The notes under the pieces are model-generated. The model saw only the letters and a list, made by a program, of their open reading frames with translations, was not told where the DNA came from and did not search any database. Shown here piece by piece: positions 26,294 to 28,966 of a DNA stretch of 64,000 nucleotides. Made by a program: the position numbers and the translations under genes. Every line of letters begins with the position of its first letter. Positions within the stretch are counted from its first letter, which is position 1. Location of the stretch: NCBI GenBank assembly GCA_041688145.1, contig JBDNIV010000038.1:1-64000 (forward strand). Direction: 5' to 3'. Origin of the DNA: Chlamydiia bacterium. Lineage in GTDB: Bacteria > Chlamydiota > Chlamydiia > Chlamydiales > JAAKFQ01.

Positions 26294-27481
26294 TTATGCA
26301 AGCCAGCTTGTCAGCCTTTGTCCAACTGAGTTTCTAATTGAGCTTACAGCCACTTGTTCAAAGCCTGCTTGCATGCCTGTAGTAAGGCTTGGGCCTTCTC
26401 TATCCCAAGCAGCTACAGTATGTCTTTCAGCAGCAGTTACTGCAGCACCTGCAATAGCGCCAGTAACTAGAGACCCAGCAACTGTGTTTAAAAGAGCACT
26501 TGAGCTAATAGAAAAAGCAGCTCCTGCAGTGATTTCAATAACGCCTTTTGACATCTCCCATACAGGTGTTGTTTTGCCTTGTTGGATAGCAGATTGCGCT
26601 TCTTTTCTTACAGCAGCTTCGCCTTCACTTTCCATTTGCATGTAGTAGCGGTAGCCTTCGTAGACAGCGTACGCACTTCCAGCTGCGCCTGCTGTAATAA
26701 GAGCGCCTCTTACATCTAGGTTAGTTGCAGCTCTAAGTACTCCGTATGCTGCAGCCGTTCCTATAATAGTAGGTACAGCTATAACAGTCACACGCGCTAT
26801 ATCACGTGTTGTGTCAGAGATATCTGCTTCACGAAGAGCAGCCTCGATGCGGCCATGGCCTTCAATTGTTAGCCTTCGGCCTGCATAGATGCCTGCTCCT
26901 GATGCCACTGTGATTGCTCCTGTGCGCACACCCTCACGAATACGATCGCTAAAGCCTCTAATATGGTTTTGTTCATCTGCACTTAGAGCCTGAGCTGCAG
27001 ATTGAGCTGTAGTAGATGAAGTGTTCGTTTGTCCTCGCATAGCAGCTATCATGTAAGGGGCGATTTTAGCCACTAAGCCAGCGCCTCCAATTAAGCCGAT
27101 AATCAGCATGCCGTGAGCAGCTAGAAAAGGAGAGATAGCTGCTATTTGAGCAGCAGCCATGCCACTTGCTGCCCATGATTTTTGTAACAAGATATAGCGT
27201 GCAATTGTGATAATACCAAACAAAGTGAGTGTTGCTTTGAAGTCACCCTTTACAACTTTTTGGTAAAAGTCTTGAACAGGCTCAATAACACGGCTACTAA
27301 AAGCTGCACTATAAGTGCTATCAGCTTCTTTTTGGTCATCATTAATCGCATCTAAACTTACTCTTGTCACTATCTTTACAGAGTCGTCAAAACTATTTTC
27401 AGATGGGTTTTCTGTAGTTCCTAATAGAAGGCCAAGACCGACTGTAGTGCTTCTAGTGTCTTGTATTTCTCGTGTTGTCAT
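26294..27481 (-). CDS. Orphan Gly/Ala-rich multi-helix membrane protein (candidate secreted effector)
   Basis: 395-aa ORF, Ser/Thr-rich N-terminus, several Gly/Ala hydrophobic helices; third gene of the operon. Confidence 0.8.
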   Translation of the reverse strand: MTTREIQDTRSTTVGLGLLLGTTENPSENSFDDSVKIVTRVSLDAINDDQKEADSTYSAAFSSRVIEPVQDFYQKVVKGDFKATLTLFGIITIARYILLQKSWAASGMAAAQIAAISPFLAAHGMLIIGLIGGAGLVAKIAPYMIAAMRGQTNTSSTTAQSAAQALSADEQNHIRGFSDRIREGVRTGAITVASGAGIYAGRRLTIEGHGRIEAALREADISDTTRDIARVTVIAVPTIIGTAAAYGVLRAATNLDVRGALITAGAAGSAYAVYEGYRYYMQMESEGEAAVRKEAQSAIQQGKTTPVWEMSKGVIEITAGAAFSISSSALLNTVAGSLVTGAIAGAAVTAAERHTVAAWDREGPSLTTGMQAGFEQVAVSSIRNSVGQRLTSWLA

Positions 27482-27526
27482 TTTATTTCTCTAATTTTTA
27501 TTAAAATTTATTAATTTGTTTAAGTA

Positions 27527-28966
27527 TTATGCTGAAACTTTTTCGCGGTTTTCATAAGCTGTCTTAAGCTCTAGGGTAGAGCGTTGACCTCTTTTAAATA
27601 AGCTGTGTCCATAGACTGCCGCTGTTTCAAAAATGCTTGTATTCTCACCTGTGTACCAGTCGTTTACACCTTTAATCATGGCAACGCGTCCTATAAGAGA
27701 GGTTCCTAAAGACCAGATAAGCCCGCCGTGCGCTTGAACAAGGCCAAGGCCTAGCATAGAAGAGAGATTCCCGATGGAGTCTAAGGCAATTCCTTGCGCT
27801 ATAAGCGCACATGCTTTTGTAGTATCATGTTGTGCAACTGAATCTGTTTCTTTGGCTTTGATTTCAATGGCTTTCAGGGCAAGTAGTTTTACATTTTTAC
27901 TTGCTTCATTAAGCTCTTTTGAGCCGCTGTACCAGTCTAGTGTGCGCGTAGCTGCAACTGTGATGCTAGGTAGAGCAATATAAACGATGCCCAGACCTGT
28001 GCTTGTAGCTACAATAGAGCCTACAATCGCTCCAAGAGCCATAGGTGTGATCTTTACAGCAAGAGTGATGTACTGCATCTTTTTTTCTGAGTACTCACCT
28101 TTAAGAGCTTCTAGGCCAGCAGCAGCAGTGCCCTCACCGATTAAGCTTGCGCCTGTACCAGCAAAGTGCATGCCAACGCCAAGCCCTAAAGCCATCTTGC
28201 TATAGACGCTGTGCATAAGGCCTTTTTGCGCGCTAGCAGCAGCAGTTGCTTCAGTAGCTTGGATTGCATCAGCAGCTGTTTTTGTAGCATTCGCTTTTTC
28301 TGTTGCTTCTTTGGCTGCTTTCATTGCTAGCTCAGCTGCTTCTTTAGCTTCTGCTGTTTTAGCAGCTTCGGCTATACCGTGCGCTTTTTTAGCAGCTTGC
28401 ATAGCTAGATCAGCAGCTGTTTGAGCTTCAGCTGCTTTTTCAGTAATTGTTTGTGCCGGAGTTTGAGAGGCTTTAGCTATTTGATCGTAAAAGCTGTTTG
28501 CATTTGTTTCTGCCCACTCAAAAGTGTGATTAGCGTACTGCTTAGCGGTTTCTGGGTTCTTATAGCTAAAACCTGCCAAGCCTGCACCTGTTATGAAAAG
28601 AGGGATTGCTAAGCCGCGGATAATATTCACTGCTAGAAGAATACTGACAGCTACACCTGCAACGCCTAAGCCTGAATTAAGAGGCACATTCTCGCGGAGC
28701 ATAGCACTTCCGATACCTGCAATAAGAGTCGTTCCTAGAGCGAGGGACTTTAAATCTCCATTTTTAGGAAAAGAGACAAGTGGGAAGTCCACAGCATATT
28801 TAAGTGTGTGGTAAGTCCCCACAAAAGGAGCTTTCATTACAGTCCAAGCTGCAGATGTTTTTGCTTCTGCAGATTTAGCAGGTTTTTGCTTTTGCTCCTG
28901 AACCTGTCCTTCTTGCTCCCATGCAGGGGCAGCTTTAGTTGATGATGAAAGAGAATACCAAGCCAT
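27527..28966 (-). CDS. Orphan Gly/Ala-rich membrane protein with Ala/Lys/Glu helical linker (candidate effector; distant paralog of 26294..27481)
   Basis: 479-aa ORF with AAAGGT RBS; long bilobed hydrophobic segment; AADLAMQAAKKA / AAELAMKAAKEA repeat. Confidence 0.8.
   Translation of the reverse strand: MAWYSLSSSTKAAPAWEQEGQVQEQKQKPAKSAEAKTSAAWTVMKAPFVGTYHTLKYAVDFPLVSFPKNGDLKSLALGTTLIAGIGSAMLRENVPLNSGLGVAGVAVSILLAVNIIRGLAIPLFITGAGLAGFSYKNPETAKQYANHTFEWAETNANSFYDQIAKASQTPAQTITEKAAEAQTAADLAMQAAKKAHGIAEAAKTAEAKEAAELAMKAAKEATEKANATKTAADAIQATEATAAASAQKGLMHSVYSKMALGLGVGMHFAGTGASLIGEGTAAAGLEALKGEYSEKKMQYITLAVKITPMALGAIVGSIVATSTGLGIVYIALPSITVAATRTLDWYSGSKELNEASKNVKLLALKAIEIKAKETDSVAQHDTTKACALIAQGIALDSIGNLSSMLGLGLVQAHGGLIWSLGTSLIGRVAMIKGVNDWYTGENTSIFETAAVYGHSLFKRGQRSTLELKTAYENREKVSA

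Follow-up and report, generated by a model that had tools for sequence, protein, structure and literature searches.

The 64,000-nucleotide stretch of DNA described here (the window) covers positions 1 to 64,000 of contig JBDNIV010000038.1 (C9) in the Chlamydiia bacterium assembly GCA_041688145.1 (G000), a genome of 1.275 Mb that is 92% complete, and contains three genes, P3, P2 and P1, that follow one another in this order between a consensus promoter and an intrinsic terminator (Table 1). The promoter is the sole perfect site in the assembly, with a chance expectation of about 1.5 genome-wide and 0.0008 in its own 316-nt intergenic stretch. The gaps between P3 and P2 and between P2 and P1 measure 46 and 45 nt and are AT-rich and without a stable fold. 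The terminator hairpin (−26.6 kcal/mol, z −5.5, none of 200 shuffles as stable), which an earlier pattern scan did not list, is common to the operon and to a convergent beta-barrel-like gene. A preliminary description, made from the sequence alone, had placed P1 and P2 in one operon with the presequence-bearing P3 and a strong terminator at its end; promoter, short gaps and hairpin bear this out, and co-transcription of the three genes is well supported on sequence grounds.

The most conspicuous of the three products is P3, in which a presequence-like N-terminus is followed by a Pro/Gln-rich linker and one C-terminal hydrophobic segment (aa 172-202). The N-terminal part has a hydrophobic moment of 0.58 and a possible processing site, RRLHS, at residues 61-65, and it places P3 first among 967 open reading frames (ORFs) by an ad hoc presequence score, which is not that of TargetP or MitoFates. 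Presequences are described as 10-70 aa long, amphipathic, positive and acid-free, with cleavage after Arg (PMC12895284), and the P3 N-terminus fits this description. The only P3 homologue, P0012 (62% identity), likewise begins with 80 acid-free residues that include 10 Arg and no Lys; between the two, residues 1-30 are 83% identical versus 40-46% for the linker. No Pfam family was found for P3. This presequence-like start is the strongest feature of the locus, and the link to mitochondria the most testable part of what is proposed below. Weaker Arg-rich, acid-poor N-termini were seen in three further orphans of the genome, C37:23732-24502 (+), C47:13736-15403 (-) and C9:66200-67144 (+), which may be additional organelle-targeted effectors.

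P1 and P2 both start with a polar N-terminus that leads into moderately hydrophobic, Gly/Ala-rich segments (19-mers at Kyte-Doolittle ≥1.0), four to five in P1 and about seven, in roughly three pairs, in P2, which also carries an Ala/Lys/Glu helical insert of about 85 residues. Most of these segments, which are rich in Gly/Ala/Ser, are paired across loops of 4-19 residues. Each protein has 16-17 starts of the small-xxx-small-xxx-small pattern. Conservation is higher in the hydrophobic segments than elsewhere and lowest in the first 60 residues, at 72% versus 51% in P1 and 74% versus 50% in P2. Residues 2-31 contain 14 (P1) and 12 (P2) S/T/P/Q/N, the 95th percentile of the genome being 12, and a signal-peptide-like start was found in neither P2 nor P3, P1 having a short hydrophobic patch only; N-termini of this S/T/P/Q/N-rich, non-signal-peptide kind fit a type III secretion signal. 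The first acidic residues of P1 and P2 are at positions 5 and 17, and their N-termini are acidic with no presequence. AlphaFold2 models from three-sequence alignments reached a pLDDT of 32 and 36, and residues 175-233 of the P2 insert, the only part above 50, are all that is usable in them.

Table 1. Features of the P3-P2-P1 operon and of the translocator-like gene pair of the same genome (positions in the window unless a contig is named).
Feature	Position	Strand	Remarks
Promoter TTGACA-17-TATAAT	29736-29764	-	perfect sigma70/sigma66-type consensus, 12/12 match, 60 nt upstream of P3
P3, 220 aa	29013-29675	-	first gene of operon
P3 residues 1-77	29445-29675	-	no Asp/Glu, 10 Arg, 0 Lys, amphipathic
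P2, 479 aa	27527-28966	-	second gene
P2 residues 62-132	28571-28783	-	GD-x-K motif and first hydrophobic pair; weakly aligned to P1 68-138
P2 residues 165-250	28217-28474	-	Ala/Lys/Glu/Thr-rich predicted helical stalk, absent from P1
P2 residues 268-415	27722-28165	-	block aligned to P1 199-336
P1, 395 aa	26294-27481	-	third gene
P1 residues 199-336	26474-26887	-	block aligned to P2 268-415
Bidirectional intrinsic terminator	26252-26284		A7, 7-bp GC-rich stem, 4-nt loop, T8
SctE-like (587 aa) and SctB-like (355 aa) pair	G000 C4:373-3235	+	SseC and SseD matches, both below cut-off

That P1 and P2 are orphans with a polar N-terminus and paired hydrophobic segments, as first described, was upheld: neither the proteins nor their alignments gave a meaningful match in Pfam, NCBIfam or PDB. 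The homologues of P1 are P0004 (81%), P0005 (62%), P0008 (36%) and the shorter P0009, P0010 and P0013 (25-26%), two of which, P0009 and P0010, lack the last hydrophobic segment. The P1 profile, searched against 1.84 billion representatives, returned five matches, namely P0005, P0008, P0009, P0010 and one spurious match, the ant transposase fragment P0011 (E 5e-4), which was dropped along with its cluster members P0014 and P0015. P2 has the homologues P0006 (80%) and P0007 (56%), both from a word-index search only. Further paralogues of P1 or P2 were found in the genome by neither tblastn nor phmmer, and among 399-400 other Chlamydiota genomes neither was found convincingly, which is weak evidence of absence because the genome's own SctE-like protein is matched in only one of 149 other genomes; weak matches came from G007 (E 0.004) and G278 (E 9e-4, with an internal stop). 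Homologues of P1, P2 and P3 occur on 8350-nt contigs in one other assembly and those of P1 and P2 on 6086-nt contigs in a second, and it is from these equal sizes, the whole of the evidence for synteny, that a conserved linkage is implied; gene neighbourhoods of the relatives were found in none of the metagenome, genome and viral scans or the plasmid search. By these searches P1, P2 and P3 appear to be new protein families, with a narrow known range of three to four close genomes and a few distant P1 relatives, which limits their present importance.

The genome itself, that of a freshwater chlamydia-like bacterium, is one in which such proteins could be exported. HtpG is 49-57% identical to its 16 best matches, most of them titled Chlamydiae, and a single other genome of the same family (G001) is in the collection, so that the lineage is a deep and poorly sampled one within the Chlamydiota; in G001 the order TPR-histone-methyltransferase-yajC is kept, and its contig stops before the position of the operon. 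At least half of the words of the locus are present in four lake or freshwater DNA runs, the contigs of which are almost letter-identical to the locus and add no variation; one of these runs may be the source of the window itself, and no RNA run was listed with them. SctU, SctV, SctW and SctD score above the curated NCBIfam cut-offs, i.e., the organism is a chlamydia with a type III secretion system (T3SS), as would be expected if P1 and P2 were Inc proteins. Contig C4 encodes two consecutive proteins that match SseC (E 3.5e-5) and SseD (E 0.003), respectively, and whose genes immediately precede a chaperone-sized gene and sctD; this pair can be read as CopB/CopD. An LcrH-type chaperone was not detected next to it, the contig beginning just upstream, and the sole LcrH-like match of the 92% complete assembly, at C9:93485 beside dnaA, is below the cut-off.

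These observations can be combined into a proposal, whose chances are put at about even, in which all three proteins are type III-secreted membrane effectors, P1 and P2 forming an Inc-like pair and P3 being directed to mitochondria. P1 and P2, each with several hydrophobic hairpins and probably the products of an ancient tandem duplication, would be secreted by the T3SS through their variable polar N-termini, would insert into the membrane of the vacuole (inclusion) or of a host organelle, and could pack against each other through their Gly/Ala-rich helices in the manner of SseF and SseG, with the helical insert of P2 projecting as an arm for spacing or oligomerisation. P3, with its cleavable-type presequence and one membrane anchor, would supply a mitochondrial address for the unit; a presequence is of use only in the eukaryotic cytosol, which counts in favour of this proposal. 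Secretion, localisation, the hetero-oligomer and a function at vacuole-mitochondrion contacts are what we infer. The suggestion of the preliminary description, an undescribed three-gene system acting on host, possibly mitochondrial, membranes, fits all of the data, the link to mitochondria running through P3, and keeps its conditional status. If the proteins are secreted as proposed, the locus would add three effector families, all of them new, from an uncultured and deep lineage of chlamydiae, and would be a compact and testable candidate for the way in which environmental chlamydiae reach host mitochondria.

The kind of system is known, i.e., paired membrane effectors on the one hand and a mitochondria-directed effector on the other, and the families are new. 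No precedent for both kinds in one chlamydial operon was found in literature searches, which sought precedents rather than the nameless P1, P2 and P3 themselves, and supplementary effector lists could bear on this. Inc proteins are defined by a hydrophobic pair with a loop of fewer than 30 residues (PMC3048545), and P1 and P2 resemble them in their T3SS-bearing Chlamydiota host, in the apparent succession of a polar N-terminus and paired hydrophobic helices with short loops, in the clustering of genes of low mutual similarity and in the helical or coiled-coil extension. They differ in having two to three hairpins per chain, whose hydrophobicity is too low and whose Gly/Ala content is far too high for a strict filter, in that the membrane segments are the best conserved part, and in that their sequences match none of the described Incs. 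The closest functional analogy is offered by Salmonella SseF and SseG, operon-encoded, approximately 35% similar T3SS membrane effectors that form a heterodimer and tether the vacuole to an organelle (PMC4958240). In the ESM Atlas SseF was the nearest named cluster to both P1 (0.77) and P2 (0.79), with plant-pathogen effector clusters also near; one of these leads for P2, HopAA1, was put aside, the excerpt of PMC6385969 reporting yeast toxicity and nothing on mitochondria. P1 and P2 are larger than SseF and SseG, have more hydrophobic segments and do not lie in a T3SS gene cluster, with a partner that points to mitochondria and not to the Golgi. No Pfam or NCBIfam match to SseF/SseG was obtained at E ≤1 (the presence of an SseF model in these libraries not having been checked), and the relation is one of analogy, not of homology; a P1-P2 hetero-oligomer, if true, would represent an SseF/SseG-like solution reached independently in the Chlamydiota. 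For P3 the parallels are C. trachomatis CT529, CT618 and CT642, Incs with working mitochondrial signals being known (bioRxiv 10.1101/2022.08.30.505961), and the mitochondria-targeted Anaplasma effector Ats-1 (PMC2824752), all secreted with an N-terminal mitochondrial signal, and some membrane-anchored. P3 is not homologous to any of them, is encoded first in an operon whose other two products are multi-pass membrane proteins, and has a putative signal of about 63-77 aa compared with 32-37 aa in most of the C. trachomatis cases (bioRxiv 10.1101/2022.08.30.505961).

The idea that P1 and P2 are distant paralogues had come from four pairs of sequence blocks aligned by eye, and direct comparison of the two proteins gave nothing above chance: the best BLASTP E was 0.23, full-length shuffles gave p 0.09-0.58 with three matrices, reversed P2 outscored P2 in 4 of 6 settings, and the HHalign probability was 0.6% with three sequences on each side and 0.4% with four and three. 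With seven P1-family sequences HHalign aligned the two larger blocks of Table 1 over 129 columns (P 0.001-0.008), an alignment that beat all 180 column shuffles and all 148 block-order shuffles (best 31.1 versus the real 33.2) and at the start of which P0008 and P0007 share 9 of 19 residues. A second, collinear block that pairs P1 68-138 with P2 62-132 has a local P of 0.013, a value that the best of 40 shuffles also attained, and a global score of 9.7 versus a shuffle maximum of 5.8; it was not recovered by HMMER, where it ranked 12-36 of 968. The Gly-Asp motif just before the first hydrophobic helix is invariant in all seven P1-family and all three P2-family sequences. HMMER without composition correction placed the P2 family at ranks 1-3 of 968 and above window shuffles at p ≤0.013 (150 each). 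Six of the 18 cross-family pairs had p <0.05, including all three with P0008 (p ≤0.04), and the P1/P2 pair itself had p 0.52. In all of these values the domain limits were set after the alignments had been seen and the relatives are not independent.

The weak profile signal does lie in the region that had been indicated by eye, but of the four blocks three either are displaced or lack support. The first (IEG..IEAAL with GEG..GLEAL) is in the right region and displaced by 2-3 residues; in the second (YEG with YSG) AQSAI and ALKAI are aligned but the rest is not; the third is 7 residues out of register relative to the profile alignment; and the fourth (AWDREGPSL with DWYTGENTSI) falls outside the local alignment, its Trp being absent from P0007 and P0008. 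What survives of the claim is a profile signal above shuffles, but one that HHalign puts at a probability of only 5-19% and that is lost under composition correction, and we consider distant paralogy of P1 and P2 likely, though not established. A 543-aa Ala/Gly-rich orphan, G000 C26:392-2023 (+), scored weakly against the C-terminal portion of the P1 profile over one helical stretch, with E 0.014 despite composition correction. It must be a distant third member of the family or else a false match, and it served as a decoy. A common GL-x-x-L-L patch had prompted the idea that P3 is homologous to P1 or P2, which follow-up comparisons rejected; the motif, chosen after being seen, has 4 matches in the genome versus 0-8 in shuffles.

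Several observations weigh against P1 and P2 as an Inc-like paralogous pair with P3 as partner. Composition inflates the mutual score of P1 and P2, because among 829 ORFs of at least 200 aa no others are as rich in Ala+Gly, P2 being the highest. When HMMER corrects for composition, the P1 C-terminal profile places the P2 family at ranks 577-579 of 968; a z of 5.1, compared with 5.3 for P2, was attained by one composition-matched decoy out of 44; and as single sequences in HHalign, run on 347 of 618 candidates, P0007, P0002 and P0006 ranked 1, 6 and 34. Judged by hydropathy, P1 and P2 have hydrophobic pairs at Kyte-Doolittle ≥1.0 and none at ≥1.6, the level of a strict bilobe filter, which lets 31 of 1155 ORFs through. 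The Atlas values that point to SseF are reached by shuffled proteins about one third of the time and serve as a lead only. The short P1 relatives, of 267-290 aa, may stand without P2. P3 has a single homologue, and none was found for the 6086-nt JGI contig.

Other explanations share part of this evidence. P1 and P2 may be unrelated, independent membrane effectors in a fast-evolving cluster, with a likeness that stems from convergent Gly/Ala helical composition, as the chance-level score of the pair itself and the effect of composition correction would suggest; Inc operons are known both with and without internal similarity (PMC3290821). This is unlikely, given two collinear blocks whose real score no shuffle reached, whether of windows or full sequences (180) or of block order (148), the agreement of all three pairs of P0008 with the P2 family, and a signal that rose as relatives were added. 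Slightly less unlikely is a destination in host mitochondria for all three proteins, in which P3 would be imported through its presequence and arrested in the inner membrane by its anchor and P1 and P2 would enter mitochondrial membranes through internal signals or together with P3, to act as carrier-like or remodelling proteins. The presequence features of P3 and the precedents of Ats-1 and CT529/CT618/CT642 fit this, but P1 and P2 have acidic N-termini without a presequence, P3 has no homology to either, and a common operon need not mean a common destination. The operon might also encode a tethering machine, an outside chance, with P3 fixed to the vacuole membrane at its C-terminal segment and its presequence serving as a hook that, on a flexible linker of about 100 residues, would be caught by host import receptors and not pulled through, while P1 and P2 would form a hetero-oligomeric scaffold or channel and the helical stalk of P2 would set the gap at the contact. 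An analogy, for P3 only, exists in Toxoplasma, where a vacuole-membrane protein with a mitochondrial signal or a contact to the import machinery holds mitochondria; ROP2 was once proposed as this vacuole-anchored tether (PMC2196872), and later work assigns the association to MAF1b and TOM70 (PMC7999873); the parasite is a eukaryote and the proteins are unrelated.

The two-component pore of the preliminary description gained no positive evidence, the AlphaFold2 models being unusable. Bipartite alpha-helical pores of the ClyA/YaxAB/Nhe type are a known mode of membrane attack, and P1 and P2 as the subunits of such a pore, opening the vacuole or mitochondrial membrane, would be in keeping with moderately hydrophobic, small-residue-rich helices that suit a soluble-to-membrane switch and with adjacent, co-conserved and possibly paralogous genes. 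The chance of this is slim: no match to any pore family was found in Pfam, NCBIfam or PDB, the hydrophobic segments are spread along both chains and not concentrated in a single tongue that tops a long soluble bundle, and P0009 and P0010 do without the last of them. Still less probable is that P1 and P2 stay unsecreted in the inner membrane or envelope, as a transporter or a structural pair specific to the lineage; multi-pass hydrophobicity, membrane segments better conserved than the loops and a strong constitutive-type promoter would agree with this, but no transporter family is matched, the N-termini are long, polar and variable, the genes are co-transcribed with a presequence-bearing one, and, unlike housekeeping genes, they were not found in the other Chlamydiota genomes searched. 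A second translocator pair, like the CopB2/CopD2 of Chlamydia, is highly improbable. P1 and P2 are adjacent, hydrophobic, helical and of the size of translocators, which diverge fast, but they have no SseC, YopD or SseD match while the C4 pair has weak ones, their HHalign probability with that pair is at most 0.1%, no class II (LcrH/SycD) chaperone is nearby, and the hydrophobic segments are too many for an SctB. The absence of a TPR chaperone gene from the operon, on which the preliminary description had based its statement that this is not a canonical translocon locus, holds, and the SctE/SctB-like pair next to SctD on C4, unlike P1 and P2, is a better reason for the same conclusion. With SctE/SctB (CopB/CopD) and with bipartite alpha-pore toxins P1 and P2 share the arrangement of two adjacent helical, Gly/Ala-rich proteins; they differ in the lack of a family match and of a chaperone, in the spacing of the hydrophobic segments and in the presence of a translocator-like pair elsewhere, and by sequence are neither translocators nor recognisable pore toxins.

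Among the neighbours of the operon, a 121-aa orphan with two hydrophobic segments is transcribed divergently from it (29992-30357, +); by eye it looks like a small classical Inc, without a family match. Right after the rRNA operon, 24201-26201 (+) holds a tandem pair of signal-peptide proteins with weak outer-membrane beta-barrel matches and 29% mutual identity, a third paralogue of which is found at G000 C12:56625-57383. A Lys/Arg/Ala-rich, histone H1-like protein with long repeats and a weak HctA match is encoded at 31979-32659 (+). The htpG gene (40607-42463, -) lies beside that of a sodium:neurotransmitter symporter (42490-43878, -), and after the Chlamydiae its best matches are mainly from Bacteroidota and Clostridia. 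Two co-oriented genes at 34691-35641 (-) and 35659-39423 (-) encode orphan coiled-coil proteins of 316 and 1254 aa, the smaller of which has an Arg-rich, Lys-free N-terminus and is 15th among the 967 ORFs by presequence score; in G001 the corresponding place after yajC is occupied by a gene for a large coiled-coil protein.

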